From the NCBI GenBank assembly GCA_049512655.1, contig JBEKWW010000030.1, positions 12,731 through 76,730 on the forward strand: DNA of 64,000 nt, in the 5' to 3' direction. Every line of letters starts with the position of its first letter. Positions within the stretch are counted from its first letter, which is position 1. The position numbers and the translations under genes are program-made. Source of the DNA: Candidatus Sulfotelmatobacter sp. Its GTDB lineage: Bacteria; Acidobacteriota; Terriglobia; Terriglobales; Acidobacteriaceae. Below are positions 295 to 52,796 of this stretch, piece after piece. Below the pieces are notes generated by a model, which had not been told where the DNA came from, did no database searches, and saw nothing but the letters and a program-made list of their open reading frames with translations.

Positions 295-2748
295 ATGGAC
301 ATGAATCGGCGGGATGTTTGCAAATTACTCGGTGTTGCCTCGTTGTCGGGTTTAGCCCGTGCTAAGGCCCCGCGGGCTGATGCGGCGACGGATGTTCGCG
401 TCCCTGTTCAGGCTCATCTCTTCAAACTTTCTGAAGTTCGATTGCTCGACGGACCCTTCAAACATTCGCAACAACTCAACACGGAGTATTTGCTCAAGCT
501 GGATCCTGACCGCCTTCTGGCATGGTTCCGCAGGGAGTCCGGCTTGACGCCAAAGGCGCCGGTTTACGGAGGATGGGAGTCCGAAACCGTTTGGGGAGAT
601 CATTACAGCCTTCCCGGTGCGATTCTCGGCTTTTATCTTTCGTCCATGGCAAACAGTTACCAGGGCACTGGCGACGAGCCTACCCGGAAACTGATATTGG
701 AGCGCCTTCGCTATACCGTCGATCAACTTGCCGAGTGTCAGGCGGCATTTGGAGACGGTTATCTGCTACCCACCAAAAATGGCCATCAAATTTTTGAACG
801 CGTCGCGCGTGGCGAGATCGTCACTTCGAATCCTTTGATCGACGGCGTTTGGGAACCAACCTATGTTCTAAACAAGCTGACGCTCGGCTTGGTCGATGTC
901 TACAACGGCCTGGGAATTGAGAAAGCACGAAGTGTATTGCTCGCTGTCGCCAATTGGTTTGGAACGGCCGTGCTCAACCGGCTCGACGATGCCCAGGTGC
1001 AACAGCTTCTGGTGTGTGAACACGGATCGCTCAGCGAATCGTTTATCGATTGCTACCGCTTGATGGAAGACCCCAAATATCTCGATTGGGCTAAGCGCCT
1101 CAACGATCACGCCATGCTCGATCCTTTATCCCAAGGGAGAGACATTCTGGATGGCTGGCATGCGAACACGCAAATTCCCAAGTTCACTGGCTTCCACAAC
1201 GTCTACCTCTACACAGGCAATCCCCAATATAGAAAGGCAGCATTTAATTTTTGGCAAATCGTTACGGAAGATCGATCATGGGTGAACGGAGGCAATAGTA
1301 CCGGCGAACACTTCTTTCCGGCCACGCAAACTCGAGAACGCATGCTCGCCTCCGCCGGTCCGGAAAGTTGCAACACGGTCAACATGCTGAGGTTGACCGA
1401 AACTCTTTTCACGGACTCGGTAGACGCCAGACTCGCCGATTTCTACGAACGCGCTCTCTACAACCACATTTTGCCAGTGCATGAGCCGAAACGAGGTATG
1501 CTTTCCTACTTCACTTCAATGCGACCGGGCCACTACCGCACCTGCTCCTCGGAGTTTGAATCGTTCTGGTGCTGCCTGGGAACCGGCGTTCAGGCCGCCA
1601 GCCGCTACGGCATGTTTATTTACGCGAAGGGCGATCAGAAGCTCTACGTCAATCTCTTCATTCCATCGGAAGTGTCCTGGGAAGAAATGGATACGACGAT
1701 TCGACAGGAAACCTCGTTCCCGGATCAACCTTCGACTACCTTTACGATCCTGACGAAAAAAGAACGCCGGTTCTCCCTAAACCTGCGTCATCCCGCGTGG
1801 ATCAAGTCTGAATCTCTTAGCCTGAGAATCAATGGGGAAGTCCAACAACTGGCTTCGCGTCCCGGTTCCTACGTCGAAGTCAATCGTAGTTGGAAGAATG
1901 GAGATCGAGTCGAACTCTCGCTTCCGATGGAATTGACTTTGGAAGGCCTTAGAAATTCAGATCAGTATGGCGCAATTTTGTATGGCCCGATTCTGCTGGC
2001 GGGGGAATTGGGAGCTAAAGGAATTACCGAGGATGAGTTCGATCAAAAAATGGACCATTCCGCAGTCCATACAATTTCTCTCGCGGAAACGCCTGTATTA
2101 TCCGGTTCCCCCGCGCAGATTCTTTCCAGCTTGCAACGGCGCGAATCCGAAACTATGTCGTACTCTCTAATTTTCCCTGATCAAAAGACTCCGATTTCGC
2201 TCATTCCACTCTATCGCTTGCACTTCCAGAGATACGCGATCTACTGGCGCATCGTCCCCACAGAGCGCGAGCGTCTGGCTTATAGGGAGGCACTGCAAGA
2301 TATTGAGGGAAAAATTGCACATGCGGGTAGTCTGGCCTTGGATAGTGTGATCATTTGCGATGACGAATCCGAAAAGGCACATGGATTTGAATCGGTAAAT
2401 TCGACAACCGGCACCGATGATGAATGTAAGTGGCGACGGGCCGCTAAAGGTGGATGGCTTAGTTACCTTGTGAAGGTGCAGCAGGAAAAAGAGAATTTTC
2501 TTTGGGTTGAATATCACGGCGCCGAGATCGAACCGAACCAGTTTTCGATCCTGATCGACGGACATCGCGTCGCATCGGAAGCCGACCTCAAGAACTTCGA
2601 CTTGCCTGTCATCTACGGAAAAACCTATCGGATTCCCCAGGAATTGACTTCCAACAGAAGCTCCGTGACCGTCAAGTTTCAGTCTAATTGGCCTTACGTC
2701 ACTCCTCGAATTTTTGCCCTTCGCACAATGCGTCTCGATGTTACGTAA
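295..2748 (+). CDS. Glycoside hydrolase family 127-like protein (DUF1680 / beta-L-arabinofuranosidase family) with a Tat-type signal peptide
   Basis: 817 aa ORF. The N-terminus MNRRDVCKLLGVASLSGLARA looks like a twin-arginine signal. Length and overall sequence resemble GH127/DUF1680 proteins (WHANTQIPKF, SWVNGGNS, CNTVNML, FWCCLGTG). About 170 aa extend beyond the usual core. Confidence 0.75.
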   Translation: MDMNRRDVCKLLGVASLSGLARAKAPRADAATDVRVPVQAHLFKLSEVRLLDGPFKHSQQLNTEYLLKLDPDRLLAWFRRESGLTPKAPVYGGWESETVWGDHYSLPGAILGFYLSSMANSYQGTGDEPTRKLILERLRYTVDQLAECQAAFGDGYLLPTKNGHQIFERVARGEIVTSNPLIDGVWEPTYVLNKLTLGLVDVYNGLGIEKARSVLLAVANWFGTAVLNRLDDAQVQQLLVCEHGSLSESFIDCYRLMEDPKYLDWAKRLNDHAMLDPLSQGRDILDGWHANTQIPKFTGFHNVYLYTGNPQYRKAAFNFWQIVTEDRSWVNGGNSTGEHFFPATQTRERMLASAGPESCNTVNMLRLTETLFTDSVDARLADFYERALYNHILPVHEPKRGMLSYFTSMRPGHYRTCSSEFESFWCCLGTGVQAASRYGMFIYAKGDQKLYVNLFIPSEVSWEEMDTTIRQETSFPDQPSTTFTILTKKERRFSLNLRHPAWIKSESLSLRINGEVQQLASRPGSYVEVNRSWKNGDRVELSLPMELTLEGLRNSDQYGAILYGPILLAGELGAKGITEDEFDQKMDHSAVHTISLAETPVLSGSPAQILSSLQRRESETMSYSLIFPDQKTPISLIPLYRLHFQRYAIYWRIVPTERERLAYREALQDIEGKIAHAGSLALDSVIICDDESEKAHGFESVNSTTGTDDECKWRRAAKGGWLSYLVKVQQEKENFLWVEYHGAEIEPNQFSILIDGHRVASEADLKNFDLPVIYGKTYRIPQELTSNRSSVTVKFQSNWPYVTPRIFALRTMRLDVT

Positions 2749-45264: not shown

Positions 45265-46311
45265 TTACAGGAGAGCCCGCGTAGAGTCTCGCACGACCAG
45301 TTCCGGCGGCACTTTACCGTGCTGTGCCGCCACTTCGCGCTTTTCAAGCACCGCTTTGATGCCTTCGAGCACGACTCCCACGGCCCCCGCGCCCATGGCC
45401 TGCATAGGCTGACGTACCGTGGTGAGCGATGGCGTCCCCAACGCCGATGCCGCAACATCATCGAAGCCGATGACCGAACAATGGTCGGGAACGCGCATTC
45501 CGTTTTTGCTGAGGGCGCGAATCGCACCAAAGGCGGTCATATCATCGAAGGCGAGAATCGCGGTGAATTCCCGTTTCTGGTTGATTAGATCTTGGGTCAG
45601 TTTCTTGCCGGCCTCAAAGCTGGAGATGGGATCGCGAGATTCGGGCAGCTCGACGATCAATTTTGGATCCAGATCAAGCCCGTATTTTTTCGCGCTGCTG
45701 CGAATGCCGCGCCAGCGTGGAGAACTGTCGAACAGACTCTTCGGGCCGCGTATAAATGCAATCTTGCGATGGCCAAGCGCGTAGAGATGTTCGAGCGCCA
45801 GCGATCCGCCGACTTCATTGTCCACTGTGACGGAGCTGATCGCATCCCCTTTAAGTTCGCATCCGATGATAGCGGTGGGGATACTGTTTTTTTCCAGATC
45901 GGCAAGCAAATTAATATTCAAGAATAGCCAGTTTGCCAGAACGATTAGGCCTTCGATGCGGCGGTCGAGCAGCATTTCGAGATACCGCTCGAAACGACTG
46001 CGTTCGTTCTGCACGTCGGTAAGAATGGGCAGGTACGACGCTTCGTAAAGTGTATTCTCGATGCCGCGCAGTACCAAAGGACAATAGGGGTCGGTCATAT
46101 CGAAGACCATGACCCCAACTGTGTGGCTGCGTTTGCTGCGCAAGGATCGCGCGAACTGGTTCGGGCGATAGCCTAATTTTTCCGCGGCGCGCTCAATACG
46201 CTTCTTGGTGACCAGCGGGATATACCGTGCCAGCGGCGCGTCATTAAGGACGATCGAAACCGTTGTGGAAGAAAATCCACTCTCCTTGGCCACATCGCGA
46301 ATCGTCACCAT
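45265..46311 (-). CDS. LacI family transcriptional regulator
   Basis: N-terminal HTH MVTIRDVAKESGFSSTTVSIVLN...YRPNQFARSLRS plus a periplasmic-binding-protein-like core. Confidence 0.9.
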   Translation of the reverse strand: MVTIRDVAKESGFSSTTVSIVLNDAPLARYIPLVTKKRIERAAEKLGYRPNQFARSLRSKRSHTVGVMVFDMTDPYCPLVLRGIENTLYEASYLPILTDVQNERSRFERYLEMLLDRRIEGLIVLANWLFLNINLLADLEKNSIPTAIIGCELKGDAISSVTVDNEVGGSLALEHLYALGHRKIAFIRGPKSLFDSSPRWRGIRSSAKKYGLDLDPKLIVELPESRDPISSFEAGKKLTQDLINQKREFTAILAFDDMTAFGAIRALSKNGMRVPDHCSVIGFDDVAASALGTPSLTTVRQPMQAMGAGAVGVVLEGIKAVLEKREVAAQHGKVPPELVVRDSTRALL

Positions 46312-46429
46312 GAATCTTGCCTTTGCCTGCCTATCGTGTCGCAGTAAGTCCGCGGCTAAGTTTCTGACTGCATCCTGCCGCTTGATTTCATCGCGGAGGT
46401 TGGCGACACTACAGCAGAGACGAACCCGA

Positions 46430-47641
46430 GTGTCAAGCGTACAAATTCGATCCGCAATTTCAGTTTGCCTTTCTTTTGCCTGTTTGGCGTTAGCCGCCGC
46501 GGCACAAGCGCCTGCTCAAAGCGCGTCAGCGGCCCAGCCGGCGACCGATCCGGCGGCGGTGTTCCGGGCCGGCCAGGACGCGCTGAATGCGAACCGGCTC
46601 AGCGATGCGGAGCGCGACTTCCGCGAAGTTATTGCCGCCAACCCCCACGCGGGCGAAGCTTACGCGAATGTTGGCGTGGTCTATATGCGCCGCAAACAGT
46701 GGACGAGTGCTCTCAAGATGCTGGAGAAAGCCCAGCAACTCATGCCACAGGCCGCCGGAATCCGCTTGAACATCGGTCTCGTTTACTTCCGGCAGAACCA
46801 ATTTCTAAAAGCGATTCCTCCTCTCGAATCGGTAGTGCGGGATCAACCCGAAGCAGTCCAACCGCGCCATCTTCTGGGCCTGTGTTACTTCTTCGCCGAT
46901 CGCTGGGCGGATGCCGCTAATACGCTCGAACCGCTGTGGGGCCAGGAATCCAGCCAGTTGAGTTACTTATACGTCCTCTCCATAGCGGCGCACCGTTCCG
47001 GCCTGAAAGAACTCGACGACCGGGCCACTGCTCGCCTCATTGAGACTGGGGATGGCTCGCCCGAATTTCATTTGTTCATGGGCAAGGCTCATCTCAATCT
47101 TCAGCAGTATGAGTTAGCACTGGCAGATTTTCAGGCTGCCGCAAAGGCGAATCCCATGTTGACTTTCGTTCATTTCAACCTGGGACTTACCTACTTGAAG
47201 AAGCAGGATTACGAGCATGCGCGCGATGAATTCCTTGCCGACGCAGCCGTCGAGCCCGATCTGGCCTTCAATTACGACGAACTGGGGGACGTCTACGCTC
47301 TCATGCAGCAGGATGGCAACGCGGAGAAGAGTTACCGCGATGCGCTACGGCGCGATCCGCGTCTGGTGAATCCCTACATGGGTCTCGGCAAGATTTATCA
47401 ACGAGAGCAGAAATACCACGAGGCACTCGCGGCCATCGATTCCGCTGATAAGCTGGATCCAGACAGGACCGACATCCACTACTTACGTGGTCAGATACTG
47501 CTGCGGCTCGGCCGCAAGCAAGAGGGCCGCAAAGAGCTCGAAACCGCAGTCCACATCGATAATCGAGACCGTGCTGAAAGGCAGAAGCAGGTGGAAAGCG
47601 GGACGATTCCCTCGCCAGAACTGCTTCAAATCGACCAGTAA
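46430..47641 (+). CDS. Secreted tetratricopeptide-repeat protein
   Basis: The track ORF starts at 46205 but overlaps the divergent LacI start. In-frame GTG 46430 gives a signal peptide (SSVQIRSAISVCLSFACLALAAAAQA). Multiple TPR units follow. Confidence 0.7.
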   Translation: MSSVQIRSAISVCLSFACLALAAAAQAPAQSASAAQPATDPAAVFRAGQDALNANRLSDAERDFREVIAANPHAGEAYANVGVVYMRRKQWTSALKMLEKAQQLMPQAAGIRLNIGLVYFRQNQFLKAIPPLESVVRDQPEAVQPRHLLGLCYFFADRWADAANTLEPLWGQESSQLSYLYVLSIAAHRSGLKELDDRATARLIETGDGSPEFHLFMGKAHLNLQQYELALADFQAAAKANPMLTFVHFNLGLTYLKKQDYEHARDEFLADAAVEPDLAFNYDELGDVYALMQQDGNAEKSYRDALRRDPRLVNPYMGLGKIYQREQKYHEALAAIDSADKLDPDRTDIHYLRGQILLRLGRKQEGRKELETAVHIDNRDRAERQKQVESGTIPSPELLQIDQ

Positions 47642-47755: not shown

Positions 47756-47888
47756 CGCGAACGAGCAGCCGAGAACGTTAGAGCGAATTCCCCGTCCGGC
47801 GGACCTGCACTACCCGCTGCATTTAGCCGGCTCGCATCAAGATCTTTGAACAATTTGAGTTTTGCCGAGTCATTCCAGGAGGATGTTC

Positions 47889-50726
47889 GTGTCGAAATCA
47901 TCTGCCTCGACCCGCCGGAGATATGCCCTTTGCAGCGCGTGTGTTATTGCCCTGGCTGTCATCGCCGGCGCGATTTTAATAGTTTCTCCCGCTCATCGCG
48001 TGGGAGCCAAATCTGATTCTTCACGGGCGGGTGCATTTTCCGCGAAACCAATTCAGGCTTCCTTTGCCGCTCTCCCACTCGTCTTCGAACAGAATCAAGG
48101 GCAGACTGATGCGCAAGTGAAATACGTGGCGCGGGCAAATGGCTACCAGCTTTTCTTGACCAGCCATGATGCCGTCTTCTCCTTGCACTCGAAATCTTCG
48201 TCCAGTGAAGCGGCTGCGCGCCGCGAGTCCCGAACCCCACAACTCGAAAACAGAAACTTAGGCGATCATCGGAAAAGTCGATCCTCCGCAGTTCGGATGC
48301 GGCTGGTGAACGGAAACGCCGACGCCACGGTGACCGCGGCGGACCCGTTGCCAGGGAAATCCAATTATTTCATCGGCAATGATCCAAAGAACTGGCACAC
48401 AAACATTGCGCAGTTCGCGCGCGTTTCCTATAAGAATATTTATCCGGGCATCGACCTGGCTTATTACGGCGAGCAGAGCAAGCTGGAGTTCGACTTCATC
48501 GTCGCCCCGCAATCCGATCCTGCAGCTATCGATCTTGCATTCACCGGCGCCGAACGGTTGGCCACGGACGCATCCGGCAACCTCGTCATATCTTCGGCTG
48601 CCGGGGATGTCCTCCTTCACAAGCCGATTGCTTACCAGCGGCAAAGCGGCGCTCGCCAGCTTGTCGACGCTCAATTCGTGCTCAAACCTCACAACCAGGT
48701 TCAGTTTCACTTGGGCGAGTACGACCGCAGCCGTGAATTAGTCATTGATCCAACAGTTACCTACGCCACTTATTTAGGCGGCAACGCCGAGGATGATGCC
48801 TACGGGATCGGCTTTGACGGGAGCGGAAATGCTTATCTGACGGGGCAGACGGAATCCACGGACTTCCCTGGGACTGCAGCGAACACTTATGACGCGTCCT
48901 TCGATGTTTTTGTTACCGAGATCGCCGCGAATGGAGCGAGCCTGGTCTACTCAACCTATGTTGGCGGCAGCCGCGCCGATAGCGGAAATGCGTTGGCCGT
49001 GGATCCTTCTGGCGATGTATTTGTGGCGGGAGGCACCAGTTCGCCCGATTTCCCGACGACCGCAGGGTCCTTCCAGCCGAGTTTCGGTGGTGGAACCCTT
49101 AACGCGTTCGTATTCGAATTGAAGCCTGGCGGCGCGGCTCTTACTTACAACACGTATCTTGGCGGCACTGGGATGGACTACGCCAACGGCATCGCGATCG
49201 ATAGCACTGGCGCATATGTGATCGGGTCGACAACCTCGGCTGACTTCCCTGCGCCGGCACCATTATTTCCGTCGGCACTGTCTGGGAGCAGTAACGGCTT
49301 CGTGACAAAGTTAAATCCAACCGGAACCGCCTTGCTGTATTCCACATTCCTCGGCGGTTCGGGCGATTTCGCTTCAGCCGTTGCAGTGTTATCAAATCAA
49401 GCCTACGTAACCGGGACAACACAGAATACGACATTCCCCACAACCAGTCAGTCATTTCAGAGCACTTGCGCATCCTGTAGTTCCACCTCAACTGACGCTT
49501 TCGTTACTGTCTTCAATTCATCCGGAACCGGACTCGTCTATTCAACATTCCTCGGAGGCTCGGGCACAGACGCTGGCCTGGGTATTGCGGTCGATTCTTC
49601 TGGAGACGCCTACGTTACAGGATTCACCCAGTCGGCGGACTTCCCCGTGCAATCTCCCTGGCAGAAGACTATCGGCAGCACGCAAGCTCCGCCGCAAAAT
49701 GCCTTCGTTAGCAAATTGAATCCGTCTGGAAGCTCACTGGTGTATTCGACATATCTTGGCGGTAACTCGAGCGACGGCGGCAACAGCATCGCAGTAGATA
49801 CAAATAACAACGCCTACGTTACCGGCCAGGCTGGATCGCCTAACTTTCCCTTGGAGCAACCGACTCAGGGAACATTGGGAGGGGGAAATGATGCGTTCGT
49901 GAGCTTATTCAACTCTTCTGGATCGTTGTTCTTCTCCACCTATCTTGGTGGGTCGCAGAACGAGAATACCTACACTTCCGGAGCGACGGCTCCCCTCGGT
50001 TCGATTGCGGCAGATGGCAAGGGGAACGTTTACGTAACCGGAAATACCTTCTCCACGGATTTCCCGACAGCGGCCGCGTCTGGGACCGAAGTTTTCCAGA
50101 CGGCTTGCGCGTCGTGCGGAGCGGCCACGCCCACGCCCGACGCATTCCTAGCAAAATACTCCGTGCCTAGCACCGGCGATTTTTCCGTGACCGCGACCAC
50201 GCCCGCATCGGTGAATGCTGGCTCGTCCGGGAGTTCAACCGTGACGCTGGTTTCAATCAATGGCTACAATTCGGCAGTGAACCTGAGTTGCAGCGTGACC
50301 GGATCCGGATCGCCGTTGCCCGCTTGCGCCGGGGCAAGCAGCTTCAGTCCAAACCCCGCCACGCCAACAGGAACTGGTGCAAGCTCAACTCTTACCATTA
50401 CCACCACCGGTTCGACATCCGCGTTGGTTCGGCCGGCAAAATTCTTCTACGCGATGTGGCTGCCGCTCGCAGGCATATCGCTGGCAGGTGTAGGATTCGG
50501 ATCTCCTCGTACCCGTCGAAAAAAGCTTCTGAGCCTGCTGATGATCGGCATAGTGATGGCAGTTCTTTTCCTGATGCCAGCTTGCGGCGGCGGCAAGAGC
50601 GGCGGTGGTGGCGGCGGCGGAGGCACCGGAACTCCGGCTGGCTCGTACACGGTTACGATCACGGCTACGGGAACCGATTCAGGAGCGACCACACATTCCA
50701 CTACCGTGACTCTGAAGGTCAATTAG
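47889..50726 (+). CDS. Large secreted SBBP (beta-propeller) repeat protein ending in Ig-like domains, the last one split by a TM-hairpin insertion
   Basis: AGGAGG at 47877-47882 favours GTG 47889 (ATG 47883 and TTG 47862 are alternatives). About 10 repeats of the type YSTYLGG.G.D.G.GIAVDS.GNAYVTG.T.S.DFP. For the C-terminus see findings. Confidence 0.85.
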   Translation: MSKSSASTRRRYALCSACVIALAVIAGAILIVSPAHRVGAKSDSSRAGAFSAKPIQASFAALPLVFEQNQGQTDAQVKYVARANGYQLFLTSHDAVFSLHSKSSSSEAAARRESRTPQLENRNLGDHRKSRSSAVRMRLVNGNADATVTAADPLPGKSNYFIGNDPKNWHTNIAQFARVSYKNIYPGIDLAYYGEQSKLEFDFIVAPQSDPAAIDLAFTGAERLATDASGNLVISSAAGDVLLHKPIAYQRQSGARQLVDAQFVLKPHNQVQFHLGEYDRSRELVIDPTVTYATYLGGNAEDDAYGIGFDGSGNAYLTGQTESTDFPGTAANTYDASFDVFVTEIAANGASLVYSTYVGGSRADSGNALAVDPSGDVFVAGGTSSPDFPTTAGSFQPSFGGGTLNAFVFELKPGGAALTYNTYLGGTGMDYANGIAIDSTGAYVIGSTTSADFPAPAPLFPSALSGSSNGFVTKLNPTGTALLYSTFLGGSGDFASAVAVLSNQAYVTGTTQNTTFPTTSQSFQSTCASCSSTSTDAFVTVFNSSGTGLVYSTFLGGSGTDAGLGIAVDSSGDAYVTGFTQSADFPVQSPWQKTIGSTQAPPQNAFVSKLNPSGSSLVYSTYLGGNSSDGGNSIAVDTNNNAYVTGQAGSPNFPLEQPTQGTLGGGNDAFVSLFNSSGSLFFSTYLGGSQNENTYTSGATAPLGSIAADGKGNVYVTGNTFSTDFPTAAASGTEVFQTACASCGAATPTPDAFLAKYSVPSTGDFSVTATTPASVNAGSSGSSTVTLVSINGYNSAVNLSCSVTGSGSPLPACAGASSFSPNPATPTGTGASSTLTITTTGSTSALVRPAKFFYAMWLPLAGISLAGVGFGSPRTRRKKLLSLLMIGIVMAVLFLMPACGGGKSGGGGGGGGTGTPAGSYTVTITATGTDSGATTHSTTVTLKVN

Positions 50727-50779: not shown

Positions 50780-50962
50780 GGAGGAAGTTTTCCACGGTCA
50801 GGATTGGCGCAATGGCTGTCTCTAGTCTAAGATTCTTCTTCTGACAATTTCTTTCTGCAACTTGCACAACTTTGTTTTTTCACAACCCGCAAGGGATAGT
50901 TTCCCGCGCGGGCAGCGTTTGCGCCATTGGAGGAATCGAACGTAGTGAGTTCTAATCCATTC

Positions 50963-51961
50963 ATGTTGAATGCCAGGCAGATGCTACGGGCTACTGTATT
51001 TTTGGGGTTACTCTGTATTTTTCCGGTGTCCCAGACGGCTTTTGCTCAAACGGCGACGTTCAGCCTCACCGCGTCTGCGTTCTATCCGACTTCCATCATT
51101 CCGGGAAGCACGGCAACGGCCACACTTGACCTCAGTGTAGGCACGGGCACCTCGGGTCCGGTTGCGTTGAGCTGCACCGTGTCCCCGGCAGTCACCACTG
51201 GAGTTGCTCCGTCGTGTCTTGCCAGTCCGTCGTCCGCAACGCCGGGCGCCACTCCGTCTCTCACGGTAGCGACCACCGCAGGCACCGACGGTACTCCGGC
51301 AGGCTCATACACGTTTACAGTGACCGGCACGGACAGCTCAGGGTATACCCAAACGGCTACGCTTTTCCTGACCATCGTTGATGTTCAGCCGAATTACACC
51401 CTGACGATTTCTACGCCGCTGAGTCCGGGCACAGTAACCGCGGGGAATGGAGCGACCGCTTCGATTCTTGTGACGCCGCTTGCCGGCTACACTGGCAGCG
51501 TAACGCTATCGTGCTTATCAGTTACTCCGGTGGTGACCGCGCCCCCCATCTGCACGTTCTCTCCGCAGCCGGTGGTGATTGTCAATGGTCAGGGGCCTCC
51601 TTCCACCCTGACGATTTCGACCTACGGGACAACGACGGAGCCGGTTGCGAAAGTCTGGACTCCACACATCTTCTACGCCTTCTGGCTGGCCGTACCTGGG
51701 TTGGCGCTGATGGGCGCTGGCGCGACTTCGAAGCGAAAGGGAAAGACCAGACGCACTCTCATGGGATTTTTCTTTCTGATGGCGCTGGGCAGCAGCCTGC
51801 TTTTGCTCCCTTCGTGTAGTTCCACGAACCAGGTGGCAACCAGCACTCTGGTAACGCCCAAAAATACTTACACGATCACTTTAAACGGAGTCGATTCCAG
51901 CGGAGTCTCGCCCAGCAACACGAATACTGCCCTGGCAACCGTCAGCCTCACTGTGAACTAA
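50963..51961 (+). CDS. Secreted protein with two Ig-like domains, the second split by the same TM-hairpin insertion
   Basis: ATG 50963 gives the signal peptide MLNARQMLRATVFLGLLCIFPVSQTAFA. Domain 1 is intact (...PSLTVATTAGTDGTPAGSYTFTVTGTDSSGYTQTATLFLTIV). Domain 2 is interrupted (see findings). Confidence 0.75.
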   Translation: MLNARQMLRATVFLGLLCIFPVSQTAFAQTATFSLTASAFYPTSIIPGSTATATLDLSVGTGTSGPVALSCTVSPAVTTGVAPSCLASPSSATPGATPSLTVATTAGTDGTPAGSYTFTVTGTDSSGYTQTATLFLTIVDVQPNYTLTISTPLSPGTVTAGNGATASILVTPLAGYTGSVTLSCLSVTPVVTAPPICTFSPQPVVIVNGQGPPSTLTISTYGTTTEPVAKVWTPHIFYAFWLAVPGLALMGAGATSKRKGKTRRTLMGFFFLMALGSSLLLLPSCSSTNQVATSTLVTPKNTYTITLNGVDSSGVSPSNTNTALATVSLTVN

Positions 51962-51974
51962 GGCCAGTGCCGAT

Positions 51975-52796
51975 ATGGCTGCGGACGATCCGGTCTTCTG
52001 CACGCCCCGGCGGCCTTGGGGGAAAGTTTCGAGCGTGCGGACTCTATTGCAATCGATCTCGCGCCGGGCAGCGGCGGCCATTCTTATAGTCGTCCCACTT
52101 CTAGTCATCACTCCAGTCGTTTTCGCCGCGCCAGCCACAGGCACCGCCGACAAGCACGGGCCTCCAGTTTTACGCTGGGACGATTCGCAACCGGGCTGCA
52201 CCTTTTCCAAAACCGCGGACGGTAAATACAGTTACGCGATCTGGTCGGGGGACGTGGGGGTAATCATGGCGGTGGATGCTCGCGAGGTGCAGATCATCCG
52301 TCATCGCATCGAGCCTATTTTCGGCCTGTTGCTTACCATCCGCTACCGCGGCGATTCCGGCCTGGACTTGGCGACTAATGGAATCACGCTTCAATTCATG
52401 AAACACTTCAAGATCGTGCAACCCGCGCTTGACCCCGATGGTTACACGGAAAAAATCCAGGCCGATGCGGATAATATTGACGATGAAACCAGACGGATTG
52501 ATGAAAGACATCCGGAAAAGAAAGAATCGCGTGAAGCCCGCGAGCAGGATTATCAAAAATCGATCACGGAACTGATTGAGTTTCTGGCTAAGCATAGCCT
52601 CCGTCCGGAGCGACTTGACCGCGCACATCCCGAAGCAACCGGCTGGGTATTCTTCAATACCGCAAACAAGTGGCTGGGAGGATGGAAAGCTCAGGAGGAT
52701 TTTGTTCTGCGCGTGCCGTTGGATGGAAAAATCTTTGAATTCCCTTTTAAACTTCCCCCCCAGCCGGGCGAACTCCTGCTGCGAAAACGCGAATAA
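51975..52796 (+). CDS. Hypothetical exported/anchored protein
   Basis: Starts 13 nt after the previous stop (an alternative GTG at 52035 lies before AAAAILIVVPLLVITPVVFAAPA). A beta-rich region is followed by an acidic/basic helical segment. No family recognised. Confidence 0.55.
   Translation: MAADDPVFCTPRRPWGKVSSVRTLLQSISRRAAAAILIVVPLLVITPVVFAAPATGTADKHGPPVLRWDDSQPGCTFSKTADGKYSYAIWSGDVGVIMAVDAREVQIIRHRIEPIFGLLLTIRYRGDSGLDLATNGITLQFMKHFKIVQPALDPDGYTEKIQADADNIDDETRRIDERHPEKKESREAREQDYQKSITELIEFLAKHSLRPERLDRAHPEATGWVFFNTANKWLGGWKAQEDFVLRVPLDGKIFEFPFKLPPQPGELLLRKRE

Follow-up and report, generated by a model that had tools for sequence, protein, structure and literature searches.

A Lipo-Invert Putative Anchoring Tail within the Last Ig-like Domain of Exported Proteins from Candidatus Sulfotelmatobacter

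Introduction

What does a lipoprotein-type signal do when it lies close to the C-terminal end of a large exported protein, between two strands of one and the same domain? This question is raised by a stretch of 64,000 nucleotides from contig JBEKWW010000030.1 of Candidatus Sulfotelmatobacter sp., which was analyzed as a whole and is referred to here as the window. Two adjacent genes of the window, gene 1 and gene 2, encode proteins (protein 1 and protein 2) that both end with the same kind of tail: a first hydrophobic helix, a basic loop, a second hydrophobic helix closed by a Cys, a flexible tether, and two beta-strands that belong to an immunoglobulin (Ig)-like domain begun before the helices (Table 1). 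The initial annotation had described this arrangement in gene 1, and the DNA reads to the base as it claimed, with helix 1, the basic stretch RTRRKK, helix 2, the lipobox-like L-M-P-A-C, a Gly-rich linker, and the strands. It had further proposed that helix 2 looks like a lipoprotein (signal peptidase II) signal, that the segments flanking the insertion are parts of one domain, and that no named sorting system has this layout. Our analysis confirmed the observation and supported the interpretation, except for the absence of a named system.

The reading that we favor, with a probability of about 60%, is that the element is a lipo-invert tail with an internal signal peptidase II signal, and that the lipidated two-strand fragment is kept in the Ig-like domain. 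By means of the tail, the protein is probably lipid-anchored at the C-terminus.

A Curated Family Describes the Tail Layout

The NCBIfam model NF058595.1, 'invert_tail', describes a 'lipo-invert putative C-terminal anchoring domain-containing protein' and has a curated cutoff of 37 bits. Protein 1 matched it with 92.7 bits (E 1.8e-26) at amino acids (aa) 840-954, covering model positions 1-113 of 113, and protein 2 with 46.9 bits at aa 226-344, over the whole model. The match was also found in 38 of 38 diverse relatives tested. Both tails almost certainly belong to this family, which is curated yet experimentally uncharacterized, and whose members have the same layout, C-terminal position, and acidobacterial source as the two window proteins, with nothing different in kind. 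The statement that no named sorting system has this layout is, therefore, outdated: NCBI curators have already recognized it, under a family name that comes close to the interpretation given in the initial annotation and that carries the label 'putative', which is how anchoring by invert_tail should be taken. The present analysis adds a demonstration, at the level of sequence homology, that invert_tail originated as a split Ig repeat. No PEP-CTERM, GlyGly-CTERM, MYXO-CTERM, LPXTG, or similar model matched the tails, even at E ≤ 1; when helix 1 and the basic cluster were scanned alone, only a sub-threshold PTPA-CTERM match was obtained, in the gene 2 copy (15.6 bits, against a cutoff of 29).

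The rest of protein 1 was recognized by Pfam as DUF7948 (1.2e-69) and SBBP (1.9e-38). Its hydropathy profile has exactly three peaks, corresponding to the N-terminal signal, helix 1, and helix 2 (the last with a mean Kyte-Doolittle value of 2.61), and both window proteins carry N-terminal signals. When the 64 kb were translated in six frames and scanned with a loose helix-basic cluster-helix-Cys pattern, the two window tails were the only matches. Because of this, of the full-length match to a curated model, and of a hairpin-spanning match in 58 of 59 related loci, the tail layout is not due to chance.

A Putative Membrane Hairpin Splits an Ig-like Domain

When the insertion was removed, the last domain of protein 1 could be aligned over its whole length, junction included, with the first domain of protein 2, which is uninterrupted (41% identity, E 2e-11). 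The initial annotation had pointed to the next gene for this comparison; this was right for its first Ig-like domain, but the tail copy that the same gene carries in its second one had been overlooked. A profile of 164 positions was built from the Ig part plus the tail and run against relatives with tandem repeats. Each of the uninterrupted repeats of about 100 aa in homologues P0033, P0034, and P0117 corresponded to profile positions 1-62 followed directly by positions ~131-164, and the last repeat of P0031 and P0032 matched positions 1-164 in one piece, insertion included. The tail is, therefore, another of these repeats, into which about 68 positions have been inserted. In the alignment of the Ig part and tail, a T, a P, and a Y are invariant in the segment of the last two strands.

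AlphaFold2 was run on aa 771-954 of protein 1 with an alignment of 18 sequences. The model showed strands at 3-8, 19-29, 36-44, and 70-77, helices at 91-105 and 115-134, a disordered linker, and strands at 157-167 and 174-183. The predicted local distance difference test score (pLDDT) was 84-90 for the last two strands and below 50 for the tether. A Foldseek search against the PDB returned weak matches (E ≥ 0.06), nearly all of them Ig folds, such as nanobodies, RbmA, and macroglobulin domains, and the alignments spanned the whole query. The splice alignment, the matches of the tandem repeats, and the strand order in the AlphaFold2 model agree that the two flanks are consecutive strands of one Ig-like domain, as had been proposed. 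The module is an Ig-like beta-sandwich in which the connection between the fourth and the fifth strand is replaced by a membrane hairpin.

Conserved Features around the Cysteine

When 1.84 billion cluster representatives were searched with a profile, 19,166 matches were obtained at E ≤ 0.001, many of them to the Ig part only, and 287 at E ≤ 1e-30. The best 150 of these profile matches were pooled with close homologues, and 111 proteins with a hairpin-spanning match provided the tail statistics that follow. The tail ended within 6 aa of the C-terminus in 110 proteins, and in both window proteins it extends to the stop codon, with the lipoprotein-type signal beginning at about aa 883 of 954 in protein 1 and 269 of 344 in protein 2. 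The Cys was present in 111/111 tails. Position -1 was small in 108 of them (A in 81, S in 17, and G in 10), position -3 was L in 67 and M in 23 (90 in total), with Q in another 10, and position -2 was P in 41, A in 22, and V in 17. After the Cys, position +2 was G in 100/111, the residues G, S, T, N, and P made up 92% of the first twelve positions (+2 to +13), and the chain continued for 34-55 residues (median 45). Before the Cys, there was an uncharged run (median length, 19 residues), and the basic loop in front of this run had a median net charge of +4. The signal peptidase II-like reading thus holds at the level of the family, with an invariant Cys, a small residue at -1, L or M at -3, and a Gly/Ser tether after it. 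In the window, the tail of protein 1 has RTRRKK followed by 19 uncharged residues, as in a type II signal with its n-region and an h-region of ~7-22 residues. Across the family, positions -1 and -3 and the Cys fit the lipobox [LVI]-[ASTVI]-[GAS]-C, whereas the Pro at -2 of both window tails does not. A looser, G+LPPv2-type pattern fitted 91/111 tails.

Helix 1 has a motif of its own, F-Y-A-x-W-L-P-x-x-G-x-x-L-x-G-x-G, with 2.5-3.6 bits per conserved position, whereas helix 2 is a generic hydrophobic segment with 1.0-2.1 bits. This higher conservation of helix 1 hints at a specific recognition or at helix packing. In some members, an additional domain of about 90 aa separates the tether from the last two strands (P0017, where it is an fn3 domain, PF00041; P0112, P0153, and P0164; and loci L037, L040, and L044). 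What follows the Cys thus behaves as a polypeptide that is exported and folded. A tail-only profile found 620 clusters (90% identity) at E ≤ 1e-5 among 8000 candidates scored.

As a separate observation, a C-[ST]-G-C motif stands right before the conserved TPAG that begins the penultimate strand in homologues P0004, P0006, P0008-P0011, P0013, P0015, and P0018-P0026. It is present in neither window copy, and a disulfide or a metal site are its possible meanings.

Proposed Mechanism and Its Alternatives

In the mechanism proposed here, the N-terminal Sec signal would export the passenger, and helix 1 would act as a stop-transfer segment crossing the membrane from outside to inside. The basic loop (RRKK) would be cytoplasmic, following the positive-inside rule, and would double as the n-region of an internal lipoprotein signal; helix 2 would then re-insert from inside to outside as an internal type II signal peptide. 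Lgt would add diacylglycerol to the invariant Cys, and LspA would cleave before it. The lipidated fragment of about 46 residues, composed of the Cys, the Gly tether, and two strands, would remain in, or join, the last Ig-like domain. The passenger would be tied in this way to a lipid at its C-terminal end, the inverse of the usual N-terminal lipoprotein anchor, with the housekeeping lipoprotein machinery only. Among these steps, the out-in-out topology appears highly probable and the lipidation of the Cys likely, while cleavage before the Cys is favored with less confidence, and for retention of the fragment by non-covalent strand complementation we see an even balance. A topology with the last strands in the cytoplasm would disagree with the variants bearing fn3 and with the fact that these strands are homologous to those of exported repeats.

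Several observations weigh against this mechanism. The mean Kyte-Doolittle value of helix 1 is marginal (1.58 over 19 residues). The strict PROSITE-type lipobox was matched by only 55/111 tails, and the pattern is broken by the Pro at -2 found in both window copies and in 41/111 of the family. A full-text search of the literature found neither a paper on the invert_tail module nor an experiment on its lipidation or cleavage; the one match for 'C-terminal lipoprotein signal' was discarded as a wording slip for an N-terminal signal. The initial annotation had suggested modeling the domain with the insertion removed, and this single-sequence AlphaFold2 model had the expected all-beta layout but a low confidence (pLDDT 54.7). 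The packing of the last two strands on the first four is suggested by the pLDDT values, the homology, and the spans of the Foldseek alignments, from which we infer the strand pairing. Moreover, after the action of LspA, the passenger would still hold the hairpin of helix 1, loop, and helix 2, so it is hard to explain what the lipid would add, unless the hairpin is taken away in a further step.

One such step can be imagined. In a 'C-terminal lipidation by proxy', LspA would split the Ig-like domain, complementation would hold it together, and an intramembrane protease would cut helix 1, leaving the passenger on a lipopeptide clasp; speculatively, the conserved, Pro- and Gly-rich helix 1 would allow this second cut. 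We regard this extension as tentative and rather improbable. If true, the Lol pathway could bring the passenger piggy-back to the cell surface or the outer membrane, and the adjacent pair of tail-bearing genes might exchange terminal strands.

The alternative that survives best is a plain helical-hairpin anchor, in which the helices hold the last Ig-like domain at the inner membrane and the Cys carries a lipid at most, with the chain staying uncut and no two-chain product formed. Two hydrophobic segments with a basic loop between them would suffice to anchor the protein, the Pro at -2 is atypical of LspA substrates, and the conservation of helix 1 above helix 2 could reflect helix-helix packing. 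Nevertheless, a pure anchor needs no invariant Cys, small residue at -1, L or M at -3, Gly at +2, or Gly/Ser tether, and these features together are the signature of a substrate of Lgt and LspA, the latter acting after the former in the lipoprotein pathway. We consider an uncut hairpin unlikely.

Fainter still is the chance that helix 1 and the basic cluster form a signal in the style of PEP-CTERM, GlyGly-CTERM, or MYXO-CTERM, read by a dedicated intramembrane protease or transpeptidase, with the lipobox being secondary. The layout of motif, helix, and basic cluster would agree with this, as would the F-Y-A-x-W-L-P-x-x-G motif with its information content above that of helix 2, the Pro- and Gly-rich nature of helix 1, the weak PTPA-CTERM match, and the 'choice-of-anchor' domains among the passengers. 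The known sorting-signal models all stayed below threshold, however, and about 70 conserved residues follow the basic cluster (66 in copy 1 and 68 in copy 2), where known signals end. No exosortase-, rhombosortase-, CPBP-, or rhomboid-like gene was found in the 64-kb window, where a Na/H exchanger and an MFS transporter are the sole polytopic membrane proteins, and the invariant lipobox would be left unexplained.

In a last alternative, a small conventional lipoprotein would begin at the basic loop, made by internal initiation or from a gene of its own, and the fusion would be an artefact of annotation or assembly. This is barely credible: many public gene calls of 81-105 aa start at a Met in or just before helix 1, and a Met lies at most 20 residues before the last basic residue of the loop in 60/111 tails, but in the window no ATG, GTG, or TTG lies in frame between helix 1 and this loop (the Val codon at this place is GTA), the short calls are artefacts, as detailed below, and most of the 58 loci have the tail in an uninterrupted open reading frame (ORF) coming from Ig-like domains or from the whole passenger.

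Relation to Known Anchoring Systems

With bacterial lipoprotein signal peptides, processed by Lgt, LspA (signal peptidase II), and Lnt, the tail shares a basic n-region, an uncharged h-region of about 19 residues, L-x-[ASG]-C with the invariant Cys, and a Gly/Ser tether. Those signals are N-terminal, whereas that of protein 1 lies about 890 residues in, behind both an initial Sec signal and the putative stop-transfer helix; the tail, in addition, commonly has Pro at -2, and its 'mature lipoprotein' would consist of only two beta-strands, of about 46 aa.

C-terminal sorting signals with dedicated enzymes are known from the LPXTG/sortase, PEP-CTERM/exosortase, GlyGly-CTERM/rhombosortase, MYXO-CTERM, and PGF-CTERM/archaeosortase systems. 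Their job, as generally known, is to fix exported multi-domain surface proteins by the C-terminal end, which would be that of the tail too, and there is similarity in its first half (motif, helix, and basic cluster) and in passenger families, such as choice-of-anchor. They end soon after the basic cluster, whereas the tail continues, matches none of their models, and is accompanied by no such enzyme in the window. The lipid of the tail would come from the general lipoprotein pathway and not from transpeptidation.

Domains that are cut internally and held together non-covalently include GAIN of adhesion G-protein-coupled receptors and SEA of mucins, and donor-strand complementation operates in chaperone-usher pili. 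Their likeness to the proposed outcome, a beta-sandwich completed by strands of a separate, membrane-tethered chain, is an analogy only. GAIN and SEA undergo autoproteolysis inside the domain, whereas the tail would be cut outside the domain by a membrane signal peptidase, and retention of its chain is only proposed.

The design of the tail is unusual. If the mechanism is true, Acidobacteriota would use their ordinary lipoprotein machinery to anchor large surface proteins at the C-terminal end, by means of an internal signal peptidase II site placed in a split Ig-like domain. This principle would be distinct from the sortase, exosortase, rhombosortase, and type IX secretion routes, and would represent a rare natural case of a signal peptidase producing a two-chain domain. 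The family is large, and its tail is attached to many types of passenger in bacteria that are abundant in soil and peat.

Table 1. Positions of the two tail-bearing genes and of their parts in the window.
Feature	Position	Strand	Basis
Gene 1, 954-aa exported protein	47862..50726	+	ORF
Parts of gene 1: N-terminal hydrophobic signal (aa 19-49), DUF7948 (aa 75-298), SBBP beta-propeller repeats, Ig-like domains, invert_tail			
Last Ig-like domain of protein 1, N-terminal part (four strands, aa 771-853), ending in ...ASSTLTITTTGSTS	50172..50420	+	AlphaFold2 strands; profile positions 1-62
Helix 1 of protein 1, FFYAMWLPLAGISLAGVGFG, aa 861-880	50442..50501	+	Hydropathy, AlphaFold2, motif conservation
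Basic loop of protein 1, SPRTRRKK	50502..50525	+	Sequence reading; charge in the family
Helix 2 (h-region) of protein 1 with lipobox L-M-P-A-C, LLSLLMIGIVMAVLFLMPAC = LLSLLMIGIVMAVLFLMPA-C	50526..50585	+	Cys at 50583-50585
Gly-rich 15-residue tether of protein 1, GGGKSGGGGGGGGTG	50586..50630	+	Composition in the family; pLDDT <50
Last two beta-strands of the split Ig-like domain of protein 1, TPAGSYTVTITATGTDSGATTHSTTVTLKVN (TPAGSYTVTITATG...HSTTVTLKVN)	50631..50723	+	AlphaFold2; profile positions 131-164
Gene 2, adjacent, 344-aa protein: signal peptide, one uninterrupted Ig-like domain, second Ig-like domain with its own invert_tail	50927..51961	+	
Second hairpin (gene 2)	51668..51817	+	Pattern search, hydropathy
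Helix 1 of the gene 2 copy, IFYAFWLAVPGLALMGAGA	51668-51724	+	
Basic loop of the gene 2 copy, TSKRKGKTRR	51725-51754	+	
Helix 2 of the gene 2 copy, TLMGFFFLMALGSSLLLLPSC, ending in L-L-P-S	51755-51814 (Cys 51815-51817)	+	
Ser/Thr-rich tether and last two strands of the gene 2 tail (TPKNTYTITLNG...ATVSLTVN)	51818..51958	+	

Occurrence, Passengers, and Neighboring Genes

One genome per species was scanned with a pattern taken from close relatives, and this search pattern limited the taxonomic range covered. The scan gave 54 loci, with labels almost all from Acidobacteriota/Terriglobia (Ca. Sulfotelmatobacter, Ca. Acidoferrum, and Acidobacteriaceae). Two tail loci had labels from outside this phylum, Ca. 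Aquilonibacter (L026) and Acidimicrobiaceae (L052); both are metagenome-assembled genomes, and mis-binning or a wider range are possible. Among the named cluster members obtained in a second homologue search and a cluster look-up, neither taxa outside Acidobacteriota nor functional names were found. An assembly artefact, which the initial annotation had named as a possible objection, is ruled out by the presence of the tail in intact ORFs of more than 50 species-level genomes.

Of the 58 related loci with a hairpin-spanning match, 45 had two, adjacent in nearly all cases, as in the window. The synteny is conserved and consists of the tail gene with DUF7948/SBBP, the Ig tail gene, a gene for a protein of ~250-270 aa, CBS, and EPSP synthase. 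Passengers were varied and of surface type, with FG-GAP, SBBP, NHL, TIG, and choice-of-anchor domains. The longer members that start with Met numbered 52; an N-terminal hydrophobic signal was found in 34 and no other transmembrane-like segment in 45.

Public gene calls fragment the large genes at loci L001, L002, L003, L004, L059, and L060, and the tail is then listed as a 'hypothetical protein' of 93-105 aa. Stand-alone small genes were considered for P0006, P0023, P0227, and P0311 (93-105 aa) and rejected, as the DNA shows continuous ORFs or frameshifts: L003 is one continuous ORF, and L001, L002, L059, and L060 are frameshifts or minus-strand miscalls. The fragmented calls are caused by assembly frameshifts or by spurious minus-strand calls over the Thr/Ser/Gly-rich Ig region. 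Many 'hypothetical proteins' of 81-105 aa from metagenomes are mis-called tails of large proteins, and it is of practical value to annotate such proteins with NF058595.

Directly 3' of gene 2, positions 51975-52796 of the window encode a protein of 273 aa with an N-terminal hydrophobic segment, for which there was no match in Pfam, NCBIfam, or the PDB. Loci L001-L004 have a gene for 252-265 aa at the corresponding position. Upstream of gene 1, positions 46205-47641 encode a TPR-repeat protein, whose best NCBIfam match was PrsT of the PEP-CTERM system, with 96.9 bits against a cutoff of 312; this likeness to PrsT is generic only. A TPR gene was also found upstream at L059. At L060, an ORF at ~900-1500 (+ strand, frame 1), upstream of the frameshifted tail gene, looked by eye like a reverse transcriptase/maturase (...FDFLGYAF...), and it may be a mobile intron or a retroelement that disrupts the locus.

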